NCBI GenBank assembly: GCA_963837195.1
Contig: CAWIMO010000006.1
Location: 526,798 to 590,797, forward strand
Source: Vulcanimicrobiota bacterium
Lineage (GTDB): Bacteria; Vulcanimicrobiota; Vulcanimicrobiia; Vulcanimicrobiales; Vulcanimicrobiaceae
Reading direction: 5' to 3'
Length of the DNA stretch: 64,000 nucleotides
The position numbers and the translations under genes were made by a program. Below the pieces are notes generated by a model. It saw nothing but the letters and a program-made list of their open reading frames with translations, ran no database searches and was not told the DNA's origin. Below, piece by piece: positions 2,867 to 39,149 of the stretch. Within the stretch, counting starts at the first letter, position 1. The number at the start of each line of letters is the position of its first letter.

Positions 2867-3055
2867 TTAGTGATCGACGAACTTCGAGACTTCGCCCAGC
2901 GTGGGGTCGAGGCGCACCGCCTCGAGCGCATACTTACGCGTTTCGTGCCCGCCGGGCACCTCGACCCGCACCACGACTTCGTGCGGATGCACTTCTTTGA
3001 CGGTCCCCTCTTCTTGGGTGCCGTCGATGTAGACGTGATCGCCAGGTTTAAACAT
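2867..3055 (-). CDS. Small hypothetical protein (62 aa)
   Basis: ORF with normal composition: MFKPGDHVYIDGTQEEGTVKEVHPHEVVVRVEV... Confidence 0.5.
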   Translation of the reverse strand: MFKPGDHVYIDGTQEEGTVKEVHPHEVVVRVEVPGGHETRKYALEAVRLDPTLGEVSKFVDH

Positions 3056-4808: not shown

Positions 4809-6053
4809 ATGACCTCCGACGCGAAGCCGCTGGCCGAACCGCGGCTCGACCGCACGCCTGCGCTCGTGCGTCCCGGCTTCGTCGCCGGTGCCTCGGCCAA
4901 CGATCCCACCACGGTGGGAAGCCTCGCGGCTGTCGGCGCGACGACAGTCTACGGTCTCGCCTGGCTCGTCGTTGCGATTTTGCCGATGCTCGCGGTGACC
5001 CAGATGATCGCGGCATCCGTCGGTGCCGCCACCCGCACCAGCGTGCAGGGCGCGATCGTGCGCCGCTACGGCATCACTGCCGGACTGCTCTCGCTCGCCG
5101 CAATCGTCGCAGTCAACCTTATGACGCTCGTTGCCGACATCGAGGCCGGGTGTCAGGCCCTCTCGCTGCTCGTCGGCCTTCCGTATCAATGGTTCTTGCT
5201 GCCGTTCGCCGCGGCGATCGCCTACCTGCTGCTCACCCATTCGTACGGGCGCATCGCGACCTGGTTGATGTTGGTGCCGATTCTCTTTGTTGCATACGCC
5301 GCCAGCGCTGCGCTCGCGCACGTCGATTGGCTCGACGTAGCGCGTCATACGTTCGTTCCGCATTTTGAATTCTCGGGCGTATATCTGATCGGCGCGTTGG
5401 CGCTCATCGGCACGACGATCACCAGCTACGAGTACGTGTGGGAGTCGATCGAGGTCGCGCAGTCGCGGCGGGGGCCCTCTCGCTTAGGTGCGCTCAAGCT
5501 CGACGCAGTGCTCGGCGTCCTGGCGGCCGGCGCCGGCTTCCTGTTTGTTCTCGTCGCTTCCGGCGCGACGCTCGGCGTGCACCATCTTCCGATCGAGACC
5601 GTCGACGACGCCGCCCGCGCGCTCACCCCGCTCGCCGGCCCCGCCGCGGGCGCACTGTTCGGCATCGGCCTCTTCGCGTCAGCGGTGTTGACCGTGCCGA
5701 TCCTAGCCGCTTCGACCGCGTATGCCGTCGCGCACACGTTCGGAAGCAATGCATCGCTCGACGCAGACGTGCGCGACGCCAAGCCGTTTTATGCAATCAT
5801 TCTCGGCGCGCTCTTGGTGGGCGCGGGTGTCGCGCTGCTTGGGCTTCCGCCGATCCGCCTGCTGGTCTGGGCTTCGATCGCGGGCGGACTCGGCACGCCG
5901 ATCACGCTCGTGCTCATGAATTGCGTCGCGCGCAGCCGCCGAACGATGGGCGACTTTCGTATCGGCCTGCCGCTCTCGATCGCCGGCTGGACGGTGACCG
6001 CGCTGATCGTGCTCGCGTGCGCCGCGTTCCTCTTGATCGAAACACAAGCTTAA
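4809..6053 (+). CDS. NRAMP-family divalent metal cation transporter
   Basis: GASANDPTTVGSLAAVGATTVYGLAWLVVAILPMLAVTQ and a polytopic hydrophobic profile. Confidence 0.7.
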   Translation: MTSDAKPLAEPRLDRTPALVRPGFVAGASANDPTTVGSLAAVGATTVYGLAWLVVAILPMLAVTQMIAASVGAATRTSVQGAIVRRYGITAGLLSLAAIVAVNLMTLVADIEAGCQALSLLVGLPYQWFLLPFAAAIAYLLLTHSYGRIATWLMLVPILFVAYAASAALAHVDWLDVARHTFVPHFEFSGVYLIGALALIGTTITSYEYVWESIEVAQSRRGPSRLGALKLDAVLGVLAAGAGFLFVLVASGATLGVHHLPIETVDDAARALTPLAGPAAGALFGIGLFASAVLTVPILAASTAYAVAHTFGSNASLDADVRDAKPFYAIILGALLVGAGVALLGLPPIRLLVWASIAGGLGTPITLVLMNCVARSRRTMGDFRIGLPLSIAGWTVTALIVLACAAFLLIETQA

Positions 6054-32578: not shown

Positions 32579-33024
32579 GAGCATTCGCAGTTCTTCCACT
32601 TCTCTTCGCCGCAGCCACCTGTTTGGGGCTCGCTGCCCAAACGGTTTGGACGCGCGATACAACGTCTGGCGCTACAGAATGGGGCAGCTACAACCGTAGC
32701 CTTGCGCTCTTCGTCCCATGCGGTAGCGACCGTGTTGAGCACGTCCAAAATGGCGATCGAATGACCGTACATCCCGGACCTTGCCCTAGCGGATTGGAGC
32801 CACCCACGGTTGACGACGCCCAAACGCTCTTTGCCAGCGCTTCAAGGATAATGCCAAACGAGAAAATCGACGCGAATCGATTCAAAGCGTTTCTTCGCAC
32901 GGAGTCAGGCGCCAATTTCGTCAACGCGCTTAGGGCTGGCAACACCAGTGCCGTAAAGACAATCTACGAATCTCACGCGAAGCCTGTTCCGGCTATCACT
33001 ATGCGCCCCAACGGCCGAACCTAG
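32575..33024 (+). CDS. Secreted hypothetical protein
   Basis: ATGA overlap; signal peptide MRAFAVLPLLFAAATCLGLAAQ. Confidence 0.6.
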   Translation: MRAFAVLPLLFAAATCLGLAAQTVWTRDTTSGATEWGSYNRSLALFVPCGSDRVEHVQNGDRMTVHPGPCPSGLEPPTVDDAQTLFASASRIMPNEKIDANRFKAFLRTESGANFVNALRAGNTSAVKTIYESHAKPVPAITMRPNGRT

Positions 33025-33388
33025 CGCTACGAACGCGCTTCAGGATGTAAGCGTTCCACGGTGGTGCTTGAACGACCAGAGGAATGCCGTCAGCATCGAT
33101 ATCCTCAAGCTCGTGGCGTTGGACGATTACGCGACAAGCGCAGAGATGGGTTGGATTCCTGCACGCGTTGCCGTGACCGGTTGTACGCACCCTCGGCTGC
33201 GTACCCGCGTTATAAAGAACGAAGATTTCTAGCCCGCATCGCGGCGGCTCAGCAGGATGTTGGCCTCAATGCTCACCTACGAATGACGGTAAGTGCCGCG
33301 GTTGTCGCAAATCGCTGCCATCTACCACTCGGCTGACGCGCAAAGCCGACGCCGCGGGTTTCAAACCGTTAACCCTCCGTAATGCCCC

Positions 33389-33418
33389 TTGACCAGCCGA
33401 CCCTACTGCTGCTAACCT
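33389..33418 (+). promoter_or_regulatory. Candidate promoter of the thr leader (TTGACC-18-TAACCT)
   Basis: cTTGACCagccgaccctactgctgcTAACCTggcggaaccATG; would give a near-leaderless leader ORF. Confidence 0.35.
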
Positions 33419-33427
33419 GGCGGAACC

Positions 33428-33505
33428 ATGATCTCGGCGTTCGTTTCGACGACCACGACGACCACCACCACCACGACCACTGTCGTTCGGTGCAGGTTGA
33501 CGTAG
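33428..33505 (+). CDS. thrL: Threonine-operon leader peptide (25 aa, 11 consecutive Thr codons)
   Basis: atg atc tcg gcg ttc gtt tcg (acg acc acg acg acc acc acc acc acg acc act) gtc gtt cgg tgc agg ttg acg tag = MISAFVSTTTTTTTTTTTVVRCRLT*. Too short for the ORF track. Confidence 0.75.
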   Translation: MISAFVSTTTTTTTTTTTVVRCRLT

Positions 33506-33534
33506 GCTAAAACACGAGATCAAGGACAGCTTAC

Positions 33535-33574
33535 GAAGCCCCGCACCGATTTGTGCGGGGCTTCTTGCATTTGT
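33535..33574 (+). terminator. Attenuator/intrinsic terminator between the thr leader and thrC
   Basis: GAAGCCCCGCAC-cgattt-GTGCGGGGCTTC followed by ttgcatttgt; lies 12 nt before the thrC ATG. Confidence 0.7.
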
Positions 33575-33585
33575 CAGGAGCCATC

Positions 33586-34692
33586 ATGCGCGTGGAATGT
33601 AGCGACTGCGGCGCGGTCGCCGACCCCCTCGAGATCTGCCGGTGCGGCGGGTTGCCCGAGTTCGTGCTCGAGCCGCTGCGCCTCGATCCGATCGGCCTGC
33701 GGCGCGTCGTGCGCGAGCGCCGCGCCAGCTACGAACCGCTCTTCGCCTCCGGCGTGTGGCGCTGGCGCGAACTGCTGCCGGCGATCCCCGCCGAGGCGAT
33801 CGTGTCGCTAGCCGAGGGCAACGTCCCGCTCTACACCTGCGACGCCGGTGCGCGGTATGCCGGCGTCGATCGCCTCGCGTACCTGCACCTGGGCATGAAT
33901 CCGACCGGCTCGTTCAAGGATCTCGGCATGACGGTTGCGATCTCGGCCGCCAAAGCCAGCGGTGCGCGCAGCGTGGTCTGCGCGAGCACCGGCAACACCG
34001 CCTCGTCGATGGCCGCCTATGCCGCGCGCGCCGGCCTCGCCGCGTATGCGATCGTCCCGCGCGGGCGCGTCAGCGACGCCAAGCTTGCGCAGATGCAAGA
34101 GTACGGCGCGCAGCTCATCGAAGTCGACGGCTCGTTCGACGACGCGTTCGCGTCACTAAAACAAGTGCGCGATGCAGCGGTCGTAAACTCGGTCAATGCC
34201 TATCGCATCGAAGGGCAGAAGTGTGCAGCCTTCGCGATCCTCGAAGCGCGCGGCTGGAGCGTGCCCGACTGGGTCGTGCTGCCGGGCGGCAACCTCGGCA
34301 ACATCTCGGCGATCAGCAAAGGCTTTCGCGAAGCGCTCGCGCTCGGACTCATCGACAAACTCCCACGCCTCGCGCTGGTGCGCGCCGAACGCGGCGTCGA
34401 CACGACGGCCAGCGCGATCGCCGTCGGCAATCCCCAGTCGCGCAATCGCGCCGACCGCGCACTCGAGCGTTTCAACGGCCTCGAACTGAGCGTTAGCGAT
34501 GATGCGATTCTCGATGCCAAAGCCCACATCGGTCGCGAAGGTATCGGGTGTGAACCGGCCTCGGCGGCATCGCTTGCCGGCGCGCGTGTCCTGCGCGAAT
34601 CCGGTGCGATCGCCGCCGATGCCGACGTCGTCGCGATTCTCACCGGCCACATCCTCAAAGACGCGCGCGTGAGCAGCTATGCTGTTGCGTGA
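33586..34692 (+). CDS. thrC: Threonine synthase
   Basis: AGGAG SD; N-terminal Cys-rich ribbon CSDCGA...CRCGG; PLP-lysine motif NPTGSFKDLGM; GNTASSMAAYAA. Confidence 0.9.
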   Translation: MRVECSDCGAVADPLEICRCGGLPEFVLEPLRLDPIGLRRVVRERRASYEPLFASGVWRWRELLPAIPAEAIVSLAEGNVPLYTCDAGARYAGVDRLAYLHLGMNPTGSFKDLGMTVAISAAKASGARSVVCASTGNTASSMAAYAARAGLAAYAIVPRGRVSDAKLAQMQEYGAQLIEVDGSFDDAFASLKQVRDAAVVNSVNAYRIEGQKCAAFAILEARGWSVPDWVVLPGGNLGNISAISKGFREALALGLIDKLPRLALVRAERGVDTTASAIAVGNPQSRNRADRALERFNGLELSVSDDAILDAKAHIGREGIGCEPASAASLAGARVLRESGAIAADADVVAILTGHILKDARVSSYAVA

Positions 34693-35596
34693 GAAGTTCG
34701 CGCTGAGCGTGCCGGCCACCAGCGCCAATCTCGGGCCCGGCTTCGATGCGATCGGCATCGCGCTCGATCTGCGGTGCCGCGCGATGGTTGAGCCGGCGCA
34801 TCGCTTCAGTCTCGAATTCGGCGGCCCCGAGCAACCAACGCATGTCGGCTTCGAACGCATGCTGCTCGACGCGATGGATTCGGTCAACAGCGAGTTGCCG
34901 CGCGTGCGCGTGCAGTTGATCAACGCCATTCCGCTGGGCAAGGGCCTGGGTTCGAGCGCCGCGGCCCGCGCGCTCGGCGTCACGATCGCGGCGCGCGCGC
35001 ATGGGCTCCAGCTCTCGCGCGACGAGATCGGCACCCGCGTCTGCGAGCTCGAAGGCCATCCCGACAACGCGCTGCCCGCGGTCTACGGCGGCATCGCCAT
35101 CGCCGCATCCGCGAACCTCAAAGAGAGCATCAAGCTCGCCGCCCCGCGCGATCTGCACGCGATCGTTGTCGTGCCCGAGTTCGACCTTGCGACCGAACGC
35201 GCACGGGCGTTGTTGCCGCAGCGCTACGATCGCGCCGATTTCGTCTACAATATCCAACGCGCCGCGCTGCTCGCCGCCGCGCTCGCGTCGAACAACTGGA
35301 TCGTGCTGCGCGAAGCGATGCAGGATCGGCTGCATCAGCCCTACCGCGCCGCGGTCATCCCGGGGCTGGCCGAGGCGCTGCGCGTCGACGCCCCCGAACT
35401 GATCGGCATCGCGCTCTCGGGCGCAGGCCCCAGCGTCCTCGCACTCATCCGCGACCGCGTCACCTGGCGCCCGATCGCCGCCCGCATCGAAGCCGCCTTT
35501 GCCGCCGCTGGGATCGCCAGCCGGAGCTACCGCCTCCCCTTCGCCGCGCGCGGCCTGGTTTCGCGCCGGTACTTGACGGAGCGCAAAGCGGCATGA
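34679..35596 (+). CDS. thrB: Homoserine kinase
   Basis: VPATSANLGPGFDAIGIAL...PLGKGLGSSAAA (GHMP kinase motifs); overlaps the thrC end. Confidence 0.9.
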   Translation: MLLREKFALSVPATSANLGPGFDAIGIALDLRCRAMVEPAHRFSLEFGGPEQPTHVGFERMLLDAMDSVNSELPRVRVQLINAIPLGKGLGSSAAARALGVTIAARAHGLQLSRDEIGTRVCELEGHPDNALPAVYGGIAIAASANLKESIKLAAPRDLHAIVVVPEFDLATERARALLPQRYDRADFVYNIQRAALLAAALASNNWIVLREAMQDRLHQPYRAAVIPGLAEALRVDAPELIGIALSGAGPSVLALIRDRVTWRPIAARIEAAFAAAGIASRSYRLPFAARGLVSRRYLTERKAA

Positions 35597-35721
35597 TAGC
35601 CTACCCGAAATGTTCGCGACCTCCATGATGAGCTGTTCCATGTGCATTATTCAAATGAATAAGGCGGGGACAGTCATTGGGAGCACCGTGTAACCCACGG
35701 ATTCGAAGAAAGCACTCAACC

Positions 35722-35763
35722 GACGCCCTCGCCGATCTCCGGCGGGGGCGTCGTTCTTTTCTC
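35722..35763 (+). terminator. Intrinsic terminator hairpin between thrB and hom (thr operon terminator and/or attenuator for hom-metY-metX)
   Basis: GACGCCC-t-CGCCG-atctc-CGGCG-g-GGGCGTC followed by gttcttttctcc; only 27 nt remain before the hom ATG. Confidence 0.65.
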
Positions 35764-35789: not shown

Positions 35790-36914
35790 ATGGACTGTAC
35801 GGTTGGAATCGGACTACTCGGATGCGGCACGGTGGGCGCGTCGGTTGCGCAGCGCCTGCTCTCCGAGGGCGACGCGATCGAGCGGCGCAGCGGCGTACGC
35901 TACAAACTCCAGGCGATCGCCATCGCCAATCCGTCGAAGTCGCGTCCGGCCGCGATCGATCCGGCGCTCTTCACCACCAACGCCCGCGCCGTCATCGACG
36001 ATCCGCGCGTCGATCTGATCATCGAATGTATCGGCGGCACGCAGGTGGCCTCCGAGCTGCTCGAATATGCGCTCGAGCGCGGCCGCACGGTCGTCACCGC
36101 CAACAAAGATCTCATCGCCACCCAAGGCCCGCGCCTCTTTGCGCTCGCCCATTCGCGCGGCGCGCGCTTGCGCTACGAAGCCGCCGCCTGCGGTGCGATT
36201 CCGGTGATCCGCGTGCTCGACGACGCGCTCGCCGGCGACGCCGTCCACGCCTTCGGCGGCGTGGTCAACGGCACGTGTACGTACATTCTCTCGCAGATGG
36301 AACGCGGCGAAGAGTACGACGTCGCGCTGGCGCGCGCGCAAGAACTGGGTTTTGCCGAAGTCGATCCGACGGCCGACGTCGAGGGCCTCGACGCCGCGCA
36401 CAAACTCGCGCTGCTCATGCAGCTGGCGTTTCAAATGGCGGTGATTTCGCCGCGCTTACGGCGCAGCGGCATCAGCGCGGTGAGCAAACGCGACGTGGCG
36501 CGCGCGCAGATGCTCGGCTATCGCATTCGTCTGGTCGCGGCCGCCACGCGCAACGCCGATGCTGCCAGCGGCGAAGTTGCGCCGGTGCTCGTGCCCGAAG
36601 CGCATCCGTTCGCTCAAGCCAGCGGCCCGGAAAACGTCGTGCGCGTCGTCTCGCGCGACGCTGGTGCGCTGCTGCTATCCGGCACCGGCGCGGGCGGCTT
36701 TCCCACCGCGTCGGCCGTGCTCGGCGACGTGGTCACGGCGCTGCGCGATATTGCCAATCAGCGCGCCGTCAATTACCCGGCACTCGAACCGGCGCTCGAT
36801 ATCGCGCCGCTCTTCGCGCATCTGCCGCGACATCCCGAACTCCCACGCTATCCGCTGTGGGACGACTCCATCCTCGAAGCTCCGCTCTCGCAGGTTGAAA
36901 CTGCGCACTCATGA
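35790..36914 (+). CDS. hom: Homoserine dehydrogenase
   Basis: GLLGCGTVGASVA...VVTANKDLIA...YEAAACGAIPVIR...NGTCTYILS...GFAEVDPTADVEGLDAAHKL. Confidence 0.9.
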   Translation: MDCTVGIGLLGCGTVGASVAQRLLSEGDAIERRSGVRYKLQAIAIANPSKSRPAAIDPALFTTNARAVIDDPRVDLIIECIGGTQVASELLEYALERGRTVVTANKDLIATQGPRLFALAHSRGARLRYEAAACGAIPVIRVLDDALAGDAVHAFGGVVNGTCTYILSQMERGEEYDVALARAQELGFAEVDPTADVEGLDAAHKLALLMQLAFQMAVISPRLRRSGISAVSKRDVARAQMLGYRIRLVAAATRNADAASGEVAPVLVPEAHPFAQASGPENVVRVVSRDAGALLLSGTGAGGFPTASAVLGDVVTALRDIANQRAVNYPALEPALDIAPLFAHLPRHPELPRYPLWDDSILEAPLSQVETAHS

Positions 36915-36938: not shown

Positions 36939-38204
36939 ATGAGTACCACCCTGGAGCAACACCAAGCTCCGCATTTTGACACAGTTGCCATTCATGGCGG
37001 CCACAACGGCGATCCGGCGACCAAAGCGCGCGCGGTTCCGATTTATCAAACCACCTCGTATCGCTTCGACTCGACCGAACACGCCGCCAAACTCTTCGCG
37101 CTCGAAGAATTTGGCAACATCTACACCCGCATCAACAATCCGACGACTGACGTGCTCGAGCAGCGCGTGGCCGCGCTCGAAGGCGGCGCTGCCGCACTCG
37201 CAGTGGCAAGCGGTCAAGCTGCGGTCGTTTACGCGATTCTCAATCTCGCGCGCAGCGGCGATCACATCGTCAGCTCGGCCTCGCTCTACGGCGGCACCTA
37301 CAACGCCTTCGCCCATACGCTCAAACGCTTCGGGGTCGACGTCTCGCTGGTCGACTTCAACGATCCCGCCGCGGTCGCCAAGGCGATCCGCCCGAATACC
37401 AAGGCGATCTTCGCCGAGACGATCGGCAATCCGAAGATCGACGTGCTCGACGTCGAGAAGTACGCCGCGCTTGCCCACGAGCACGGCCTGCCGCTGGTGG
37501 TCGACAACACGCTCGCAACGCCGTATCTGCTGCGCCCGATCGACTACGGCGCCGACATCGTCGTGCACTCGGCCACCAAATTCATCGGCGGCCACGGCAC
37601 CGCGATCGGCGGCGTGATCGTCGACGCCGGCAAGTTCGATTGGGGCAACAATCCGCGCTTCAAGGAATTCGTCGATCCCGATCCGTCGTATCACGGCCTG
37701 CAGTACGCGCCGGTCTTCGGGAACATCGCCTATATACTGAAGGCGCGCGTCCAGCTGCTGCGCGACGTCGGCGCGGCGCTCTCGCCGTTCAATGCCTGGC
37801 TGCTGCTGCAAGGGCTCGAAACGCTCGGCCTGCGGGTCGAACGCCACGTCAGCAACGCGCAGGCGGTGGTCGCGTTCCTCGAAGCGCATCCGCAAGTGGC
37901 CTCGGTTGCCTACCCGCGGTCCGAGAAGTATCTGCCCAAAGGCGGCGGCGCGATTCTGACCTTCCGCGTCAAGGGCGACGCCGCGCGCGCAAAACAGGTC
38001 ATCGATCGGCTCAAGCTCTTCTCGCTGCTCGCCAACGTTGGTGATGCGAAGTCGCTGGTGATTCATCCGGCCAGCACCACGCACGCGCAACTCACGCCGG
38101 AAGAACAGGCGCAAAGCAACGTCGACGAATCGACGATCCGTTTGTCGGTCGGCATCGAGGACAAGCGGGACATCATCGCCGACCTCGAACAAGCGCTCGC
38201 GTAA
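36939..38204 (+). CDS. metY: O-acetylhomoserine aminocarboxypropyltransferase (sulfhydrylase)
   Basis: FDTVAIHGG...[12 protein letters not shown]...[22 protein letters not shown]...[11 protein letters not shown]. Confidence 0.9.
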
Positions 38205-39149
38205 GTGCGCGAAGAAACGATCGACATCGGCGCGTTGGAACTGGACTGCGGGGACACCCTCCCCGCGGTCCAGCAGCGCGTCACGATCGATGGCACGCCC
38301 AACGCCGACGGCAGCAACGTCGTCTTCGCCGCGCACGCGCTGACCGGCTCGAGCCGCGTCGCCGAGTGGTGGCCGAACATCGTGGGCGAGGGCGCACTCT
38401 TCGACCGTCGCTACTGGTGCGTCATCGGCATCAACGTCCTGGGCGGCTGCTATGGATCAACGCGACCGGAACAACGCGTTACGGTACGCGACATGGTGCG
38501 TGCGCAACTGCGCGTGTTCGATGCGTTGCAATTGCCGCGGATCGCCGTCGTCGTCGGCGGGTCGCTCGGCGGCATGCAGGCGCTGCAGTGGGCGCTCGAT
38601 GCGCCGCAGCGCGTCGGTCATGCGATCGTGATCGGCGCAAGCGATCACCATACCGCGATGGGCATCGCGCTCAACGCCGTACAGCGCGAAGCGATCGCGC
38701 TCGATCCGGTGCGCGGCGTTGCGCTGGCCCGCAAGATCGCGATGCTCACGTATAAGAGCGACGACCTCTTCGCCGCGCGCCACGACCGCAAAACCGATCG
38801 CAAGGGACGTGCGCAATTCGACGTCGAGGGCTACCTCGATCACCAAGGCGCCAAGTTCGTCGATCGTATGGACGGCGCAACCTACACGTTGCTCACCCAT
38901 GCGATGGATAGCTTCGACGTACGCGGGCGCGCAGGACCCGCTGGAGTCGATCTCACCTTTGTCGGCATCTCTTCGGATTGGCTCTTTCGTCCGCAAGAGA
39001 TCCGCGCCGCCGCAAAGCGTTTGCACGCGCGCTATCTCGAACTCGACAGCAATCACGGCCACGACGCATTCTTAGCAGAACCTGACCGCCTGCGCGACCT
39101 GCTCGCGCCCATCGTTCCAACGCCCATCCCTTTGTCATCGCGCGCGTAG
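38205..39149 (+). CDS. metX: Homoserine O-acetyltransferase
   Basis: VVFAAHALTGSS...GGSLGGMQALQWA (Ser), SSDWLF (Asp), HGHDAFL (His). The last codons and the TAG lie in a degenerate repeat unit. Confidence 0.85.
   Translation: MREETIDIGALELDCGDTLPAVQQRVTIDGTPNADGSNVVFAAHALTGSSRVAEWWPNIVGEGALFDRRYWCVIGINVLGGCYGSTRPEQRVTVRDMVRAQLRVFDALQLPRIAVVVGGSLGGMQALQWALDAPQRVGHAIVIGASDHHTAMGIALNAVQREAIALDPVRGVALARKIAMLTYKSDDLFAARHDRKTDRKGRAQFDVEGYLDHQGAKFVDRMDGATYTLLTHAMDSFDVRGRAGPAGVDLTFVGISSDWLFRPQEIRAAAKRLHARYLELDSNHGHDAFLAEPDRLRDLLAPIVPTPIPLSSRA

Follow-up and report, generated by a model that had tools for sequence, protein, structure and literature searches.

A candidate threonine-responsive leader-peptide attenuator before thrC-thrB in Vulcanimicrobiota, and a second leader before hom-metY-metX

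In a 64,000-nucleotide stretch of a Vulcanimicrobiota bacterium genome (GenBank assembly GCA_963837195.1, contig CAWIMO010000006.1, positions 526,798 to 590,797 of the forward strand; hereafter the window), a short open reading frame (ORF) dominated by threonine codons and a GC-rich hairpin directly precede thrC and thrB. Sequence features and their conservation make it very probable that a threonine-responsive, ribosome-mediated transcription attenuator controls thrC-thrB. The hallmarks of a classical attenuator were found, namely tandem cognate codons (11 of 25 are Thr), an intrinsic terminator and a mutually exclusive antiterminator, the last with weak both-sided covariation. Sequence and comparison with relatives show the ORF and the promoter motif, a terminator that covaries, alternative helices whose complementarity is conserved, and the spacing of the parts; where transcription starts, that the ORF is translated, that transcripts terminate and that threonine governs the outcome are what we infer from these. 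An earlier interpretation made from the letters alone (the sequence-only reading) had proposed attenuation of the Escherichia coli thrL type, and the Thr run, covarying terminator, exclusive antiterminator and stop placement, all of them conserved, argue for that proposal.

The comparison set comprised 17 Eremiobacterota/Vulcanimicrobiota-like thrC loci (ThrC identity 60-95%), and counts for structure, promoter and folding refer to an alignment of 14 leader sequences (A2). The features of the unit and the genes that follow it, all on the plus strand, are:

33389..33394, +: -35 hexamer TTGACC; TTGAC invariant in 14/14 despite a variable spacer
33410..33418, +: extended -10 TGcTAACCT (TGnTAnnnT); T, G, T, A and the final T invariant in 14/14
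33428..33505, +: leader ORF MISAFVSTTTTTTTTTTTVVRCRLT and stop, 25 codons, no Shine-Dalgarno (SD) sequence; homologous ORFs with 8-13 Thr in 16 relatives
33449..33481, +: region 1, an in-frame run of 11 consecutive Thr codons, the proposed sensor of charged tRNA-Thr
33487..33508, +: region 2, antiterminator 5' strand; outer part 33487-33498, inner part 33501-33508 including UAG 33503-33505
33528..33549, +: region 3, antiterminator 3' strand; contains the whole terminator 5' arm
33535..33564, +: terminator hairpin predicted from folding and covariation, formed by regions 3 and 4, its stem 12 bp and its loop 6 nt long
33565..33574, +: U-rich tail TTGCATTTGT, imperfect in the window's clade, T7 in deeper relatives
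33576..33580, +: thrC SD sequence AGGAG; GGAG 5-9 nt before the thrC start kept in relatives
33586..34692, +: thrC, threonine synthase (TIGR00260, 227 bits against a cutoff of 167)
34679..35596, +: thrB, homoserine kinase (TIGR00191, 215 bits), overlapping the end of thrC

In the mechanism we propose, transcription would start about 3 nt 5' of the leader AUG from the conserved extended -10 promoter, and a ribosome would load on the 5'-terminal AUG without an SD sequence and trail RNA polymerase closely. When charged tRNA-Thr is ample, the ribosome would pass all 11 Thr codons, reach the UAG at 33503 and cover region 2 (33487-33508), upon which regions 3 and 4 would pair, the 12-bp hairpin and its U-rich tail would form and the transcript would end at about 33565-33574. 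When charged tRNA-Thr is scarce, a stall in the first nine or so Thr codons would mask region 1 and free region 2, which would pair with 33528-33549 once these are made, lock the terminator 5' arm and allow polymerase to read into thrC-thrB. With no ribosome, the Thr run would pair with region 2 (1:2) and the terminator would form. The transcription unit of this leader is thrC-thrB only, hom-metY-metX having a second leader of its own.

Conservation of the leader, promoter and terminator

The sequence-only reading had described an ORF at 33428-33505 translating as MISAFVSTTTTTTTTTTTVVRCRLT, with 11 consecutive Thr codons at 33449-33481; the translation agrees and the run is correct (ACG x4, ACC x6, ACT x1). 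Across all six frames of the 64 kb, this run and its complement are the sole homopolymeric amino-acid runs longer than six; this, the fold of the leader RNA and the conservation of the whole unit argue against a chance feature. A search for Thr-run mini-ORFs 5' of thrC in relatives, which that reading had suggested as a check, found them in 16/17: a Thr-run ORF (8-13 Thr), a GC hairpin and a T-tract stand directly before thrC in 16 of the 17 loci, whose ThrC identity is 65-95%. Among the matches listed, the top ThrC matches (up to 95% identity) came from soil metagenomes and metagenome-assembled genomes, the latter carrying the labels Baltobacteraceae, Aquilonibacter, Eremiobacteraeota and Vulcanimicrobiota, of which the last is what the NCBI taxonomy calls the phylum. 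Also among the matches listed, none of about 150 loci from other phyla carried a Thr run next to thrC. A Fibrobacter candidate, 'TSTVTTPTR' just 5' of thrC (L056, L059), was rejected as an out-of-frame translation within the ThrC N-terminus and no leader.

Leader peptides of the relatives include MISMFVSTTTTTTTTTTVVRCRLT, MISANVTTSTTTTTTTTILVRCRVDVG, MSRFASVTTTSTTTTTAQRFGAGLT, MMLFASSVTTTTTTTTTTTTGGRFGVGLT, MTALFALATTTTTTTTTASTRLRAGSS and MTSIRFATTTTTTTTTQIASGVGLT. Their Thr codons total ACG 68, ACC 68, ACT 13 and ACA 0, ACC and ACG also being the two major Thr codons in structural genes, and variation in the run is confined to third positions (occasional Ser aside), with length shifting by 3-nt indels. 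In most members the regulatory codons are Thr-only; L169 and L001 alone have Ile within or beside the run. The C-terminal part of the peptide is unconserved, a 1-nt indel turning ...VVRCRLT-stop into ...VVRCRVDVG-stop between clades, and the nucleotide string CGGTGyAGGGTTGACGTAGGC is conserved despite this shift of the leader frame. In 13/14, 5 or 10 nt separate the outer helix of region 2 from the start of the leader stop codon. Since the peptide tail varies and the Thr codons, the RNA and the stop stay fixed, selection acts on Thr codons, RNA sequence and stop position, not on the tail. At the leader end, TTGACGTAGGCTAA (33497-33510) holds TGA, TAG and TAA, one per reading frame, within 14 nt, and the clades that differ by the 1-nt indel use different stops of this triplet. 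The three-frame stops may ensure that ribosomes that have frameshifted, a risk on the repetitive Thr run, still halt over region 2.

Genes 5' of the unit vary by locus (methylase, peptidase S8, ApbA, amino-acid kinase, unknowns) and often lie on the opposite strand, the promoter-ORF-hairpin block staying fixed to thrC; because the upstream neighbours differ between loci, the conserved block can be taken to begin at the -35 element. This bears on the possibility that no amino acid is sensed, the small ORF being incidental or the source of a functional Thr-rich micropeptide and the hairpin acting constitutively to terminate or insulate transcription from upstream. Leader translation and the conditionality of the hairpin are themselves inferred, which leaves such an explanation some room, but an insulator fits poorly with upstream genes that vary and often face the other way, and a micropeptide fits poorly with a sequence that is unconserved outside the Thr run and frame-shifted between clades. 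Moreover, the ORF end is complementary to the terminator arm in 13/14, a Thr run before Thr-biosynthesis genes is exactly attenuator logic, and a second unit with Met/Thr codons precedes hom-metY-metX; we therefore regard this explanation as extremely improbable.

The promoter of the window is laid out as TTGACC-N15-TGcTAACCT, with the leader ORF beginning 9 nt after it. The motif TTGAC-N14-17-TGNTANNNT occurs twice in the 64-kb window against 0.09 expected (0/100 shuffles reach two), and it precedes the thrC leader in every relative locus and the hom leader in all relatives except L169, which has no thrB-hom gap, and L170. From the end of the -10 to the leader start codon the distance is 9-11 nt in every sequence, and no conserved SD-like motif was found between the two in the 14-sequence alignment. 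Transcription usually starts 6-8 nt after the -10 element, and on this spacing the start would lie near A33424/33425, about 3 nt before the leader AUG, giving a 5' untranslated region of about 3 nt. The description of the ORF as near-leaderless, made before relatives were compared, thus gains support from an invariant TTGAC-N14-17-TGnTAnnnT promoter ending 9-11 nt before the start codon. About 20 nt 5' of the -35 element is a GTTAAC palindrome (33368-33373), kept in the closer relatives L081, L161, L162, L163 and L171; it could serve as an UP-like element or as the target of a DNA-binding protein.

The proposed hairpin GAAGCCCCGCAC/GTGCGGGGCTTC at 33535-33564 was likewise correct, with loop CGATTT and tail TTGCATTTGT, and it is the sole terminator-like site in 32900-33900. 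Across relatives this GCCCCGCACC-type terminator has 97% of cells paired. In five of its pairs both partners have changed, as at columns 186/195, where six sequences went from A-U to G-C, and 0/500 shuffles score as high for covariation. In deeper relatives canonical T7 tracts follow the stem directly. The SD sequence AGGAG (33576-33580) and the thrC ATG (33586) also lie where they had been placed. If the hairpin or its flanks instead tuned access to the thrC SD sequence, or mRNA stability, according to leader translation and without premature termination, the imperfect U-tract of the window's clade would be accounted for, and the minimum free energy (MFE) structure does pair some hairpin-flanking bases near the SD region. 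Such translational control is nonetheless very unlikely, given that the SD sequence lies 12 nt beyond the hairpin and in no conserved helix, that the deeper relatives carry T7 immediately after the stem, and that stem strength and T-tail are what is conserved and covaries. As far as Rfam reaches, the locus holds no riboswitch or T-box, and no Rfam match reached the gathering threshold anywhere in the 64-kb window.

The first methionine of ThrC (ATG 33586) is nearly invariant in the ThrC alignment. Database ThrC proteins of the clade are often 377-395 aa long rather than 368 (P0002, P0012, P0015, P0023 and others), because gene callers took an upstream GTG within the terminator hairpin (window 33553-33585); the conserved start is ATG 33586 with its SD sequence. 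On the minus strand, the 85-aa ORF at 33266-33523 that the sequence-only reading had called spurious exists, reads Val x11 across the Thr run and gave no Pfam match; it is spurious. The ThrC N-termini that are too long and this antisense ORF over the leader are both annotation corrections.

Alternative pairings and ribosome position

The predicted fold of the 166-nt leader RNA has an energy of -66.7 kcal/mol, with z = -4.3 relative to dinucleotide shuffles. The antiterminator had been described as a 9-nt pairing of the leader end with the terminator 5' arm. That pairing is present, CGGTGCAGG (33488-33496) matching CCCGCACCG (33540-33548) at 8/9 positions, and the terminator 5' arm is indeed its partner; its extent needs revision, since it forms part of a longer, bipartite helix of about 20 bp (33487-33508 with 33528-33549). 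An outer helix joins U33487-U33498 to A33537-A33549 with a conserved internal mismatch, and an inner helix joins C33501-U33508, stop codon included, to A33528-G33535. Because region 3 overlaps 33535-33546, antiterminator and terminator are mutually exclusive, and the folding check that had been called for predicts both structures, sharing the terminator 5' arm.

When the terminator 3' arm was left out, each sequence paired the ORF 3' end with the terminator 5' arm and the bases just before it, and the RNAalifold consensus on these shortened RNAs was the antiterminator helix. In the window the antiterminator (about 20 bp) reaches -25.5 kcal/mol against -24.2 for the terminator, and sequence by sequence it lies at -25 to -35 kcal/mol in 13/14 (L167 -12.8) against -20 to -30. 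The outer helix has 82% of cells paired, compared with 23-46% when the partner is slid, and the duplex energy of region 2 against 1000 shuffles gave z = -2.4 to -5.6 in 13/14. Changes in the antiterminator are mostly one-sided, U-A to U-G, fitting both alternative structures, and divergent members form the inner stem in a different register. In the MFE structure of 14/14 the Thr run is predicted to pair with region 2 (1:2), the energy of this 5' part being -17 to -38 kcal/mol, in a register that the repeats leave ambiguous. A further helix of the MFE structure, AUGAUCUCG (33429-33436) with CGAGAUCA (33515-33522), was confined to the closer clade and without covariation, and no role was assigned to it; once the whole leader is made, such pairing would hide the leader's start codon.

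The leading edge of a ribosome lies about 13 nt 3' of the first base of the A-site codon in toeprint geometry. Under this assumption, a stall at Thr codons 1-9 leaves 33487 onward free, and a ribosome with UAG in its A site covers about 33488-33516, that is, all of region 2. In constrained folding the terminator forms in 14/14 both without a ribosome and with one at the stop. With a mid-run stall the antiterminator becomes the MFE structure in L172 and L002 and comes within 3-7 kcal/mol of the terminator in 11/14, L167 being about 15 kcal/mol off.

Several findings weigh against attenuation. Folded at equilibrium around a ribosome halted in mid-run, 12/14 keep the terminator in their MFE structure. 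Both-sided changes in the antiterminator number only two pairs, which is not significant, and in a MAFFT alignment the inner stem is 80% paired with no both-sided change. One member, L167, lacks a convincing antiterminator and is the exception in the comparison of duplexes with shuffles. The U-tract is interrupted in the window's clade (UUCUUGCAUUUGU), and one locus, L170 (60% ThrC identity), is without the Thr leader-attenuator element.

The first of these points was set beside E. coli thrL, for which, with a stalled ribosome, the terminator was favoured by about 8 kcal/mol (antiterminator -20.9, terminator -23.8). Because the proven thrL behaves alike, the equilibrium result does not count against function, and the expected flip to the antiterminator under a masking ribosome, seen in only 2/14, neither supports nor refutes the model. 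In these folding models the new element is at least as well poised as thrL. With the terminator still favoured at equilibrium the switch must be kinetic, decided by the antiterminator forming while the terminator 3' arm has yet to be made. As to L170, positions 2945-3040 keep a TTGACC-N17-TAACCT promoter and an ATGATT... start, and its second (hom) leader is kept; what remains of the leader is a 9-codon ORF (MILTHRHAD and stop) abutting or running into the thrC start. This looks like a natural deletion of the attenuator.

Since any slowing of the leading ribosome in the ORF favours the antiterminator, the unit might instead sense general translation stress, such as ribosome-targeting antibiotics or ppGpp-linked slowing, rather than threonine specifically, and other regulatory upstream ORFs are known to sense antibiotics (PMC12121999). 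That a phylum-wide leader would keep 8-13 codons for one pathway-cognate amino acid, with other residues varying freely, makes this highly improbable compared with sensing of threonine.

Relationship to known leader-peptide systems

The element resembles E. coli thrL in its short Thr-dominated ORF and its 1:2 / 2:3 / 3:4 logic, in an ORF 3' end complementary to the terminator 5' arm (CGGTGCGGGCTGACG in E. coli, CGGTGCAGGTTGACG in the window, CGGTGCCGGGCTGACG in L172) and in terminator arms that are nearly alike (GCCCGCAC/GTGCGGGC in E. coli, GCCCCGCAC/GTGCGGGGC in the window). It differs in that most new members have Thr-only regulatory codons, whereas thrL has 8 Thr and 4 Ile, and in lacking an SD sequence before an AUG predicted to be 5'-proximal. 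The Rfam family Thr_leader (RF00506), which precedes thrABC in Gammaproteobacteria and intersperses Thr with Ile codons for multivalent Thr/Ile control, gave a full-length match at 33438-33569 with 31.0 bits (E = 0.0038 in a 3-kb search) against a gathering threshold of 55, and the relatives scored 27-28 bits, also below that threshold; the new element, by contrast, stands before thrC-thrB in Vulcanimicrobiota/Eremiobacterota.

A covariance model built from 13 new sequences only (R1) scored 103.6 and 106.6 bits on the held-out L174 (Cand. Aquilonibacter) and L175. On E. coli thrL it gave a full-length match of 50.9 bits (rough E = 1.7e-11), so that matches between thrL/RF00506 and the new element are reciprocal; three elements carry this score, the (ACC)n run, a GGUG segment and the GC-rich terminator, each of which could be convergent. 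Part of the likeness is forced, because (ACC/ACG)n demands a GGU-rich region 2, from which the sequences of regions 3 and 4 follow. The Thr leaders found in Acidobacteriota use other terminators, and convergence on the exact sequence is therefore not obligatory. To judge from sequence, the element would work like thrL without being a member of RF00506; a common origin with enterobacterial thrL, whether inherited from an ancient ancestor or transferred, in place of convergence, is a less likely possibility. Region 2 and the terminator arms, being nearly identical to those of thrL, make a test case for regulatory codons forcing convergent RNA sequence.

The acidobacterial leaders were found in L005 (1100-1250), L155 (349-510) and L118 (991-1165), where a short ORF with a Thr(/Ile) cluster, a GC hairpin and a T-tract stand before ask or thrB (examples MKSVRRISIEITITGTSMPTIDSAEGCS and ...MWITTTTGTRVRHSGESAD). 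They differ in their terminator, CCCACCGCC or CCCACTCGC, in having only 4-6 Thr, interspersed, and in heading ask/thrB-containing operons, 2-3 kb 5' of thrC; R1 matches them weakly (21-31 bits). From their sequences, these units are a different Thr-attenuator family.

In common with the trp, his, leu and phe attenuators of the Yanofsky model, the element has four segments that can pair in alternative ways, tandem cognate codons, a stop beside region 2 and an intrinsic terminator, and its structures would compete kinetically. Unlike them, it has an unusually long, pure run (11 codons, up to 12 in relatives) and an unusually long antiterminator (about 20 bp) that includes the stop codon. Leaderless leader peptides are documented in Streptomyces lividans (leuL, trpL, ilvL, thrL-thrS and metL-metNIQ; PMC8079986), and 14 have been predicted in Deinococcus deserti (PMC4007540); leader-peptide transcription starts were mapped by RNA-seq in both (PMC8079986, PMC4007540). 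The present element has, as they do, a promoter of the TTGACn / TAnnnT type and a small ORF overlooked by gene callers, and it would share with them translation from a 5'-terminal or near-terminal AUG without an SD sequence; it differs in that only its promoter points to the transcription start. In S. lividans, thrL stands before thrS, with only two Thr codons and no clear terminator (PMC8079986). What is known, then, is the thrL logic and the leaderless start of Actinobacteria and Deinococcus, and what is new is probable classical attenuation in Eremiobacterota/Vulcanimicrobiota. Our survey of the published literature found nothing specific on Eremiobacterota attenuators or leaderless starts, on thrC leaders or on Met-codon leaders.

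A second leader before hom-metY-metX

A second unit of the same design occupies the gap between thrB and hom:

35573..35762, +: second unit, in the thrB-hom gap
35573..35602, +: promoter TTGACG-N15-TGaTAGCCT, the second of the two motif occurrences in the window
35610..35693, +: second leader ORF MFATSMMSCSMCIIQMNKAGTVIGSTV and stop, 7 nt after the promoter; rich in Met, Cys and Thr
35663..35669, +: second region 2, GGCGGGG, predicted to pair with the terminator 5' arm when the 3' arm is absent
35721..35753, +: second terminator (predicted), with a T-tail to 35762
35790..36914, +: hom, downstream of the second leader
36939..38204, +: metY, downstream of hom
38205..39149, +: alpha/beta hydrolase, probably MetX, after metY

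This unit is conserved in 14 loci, where the peptides retain 1-3 Thr and two adjacent Met, besides other Met and Cys residues; Met codons number 4-6. Its leader RNA folds with z = -5.4, and R1 gives it 12 bits only. These features suggest that the second unit is probably a multivalent Met/Thr attenuator. We know of no experimentally characterised Met-codon attenuation of methionine-biosynthesis genes. The nearest precedent we found is the predicted metL before metNIQ in S. lividans (PMC8079986).

In most deeper relatives (L165 at about 5160-5205, L172, L168, L001, L002, L082 and L170), TTTCCTCGCTTTCCCATCTCAC-AGGAGG lies 3' of the second terminator. Its CCUC could pair with the hom SD sequence (GGAGG), and it is missing from the window's own clade; from sequence it may be an added SD-sequestering layer for hom. 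The homoserine dehydrogenase itself (35790-36914) is short, 374 aa, and the enzyme and its relatives carry only NAD_binding_3 and Homoserine_dh, with no ACT domain on record. Allosteric control by Thr may thus be absent, with attenuation in its place.

Considering both leaders, we lean towards a phylum-wide pair of near-leaderless attenuators that splits the branch point of the aspartate family, a pure-Thr leader gating thrC-thrB and a Met/Thr/Cys leader, about 2 kb downstream, gating hom-metY-metX. If this is so, running short of one end product or the other would be enough to de-repress homoserine dehydrogenase. Of the elements described, this second, Met/Thr leader most merits further work.

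Overall, the Thr leaders form an alignable candidate RNA family of 16 members, with no Rfam family at threshold. They extend classical leader-peptide attenuation to a largely uncultured soil phylum in which we found no published cis-regulatory RNA of this type. Ultimately, the two leaders predict how threonine synthesis and, through the second of them, methionine synthesis would be regulated in these organisms.

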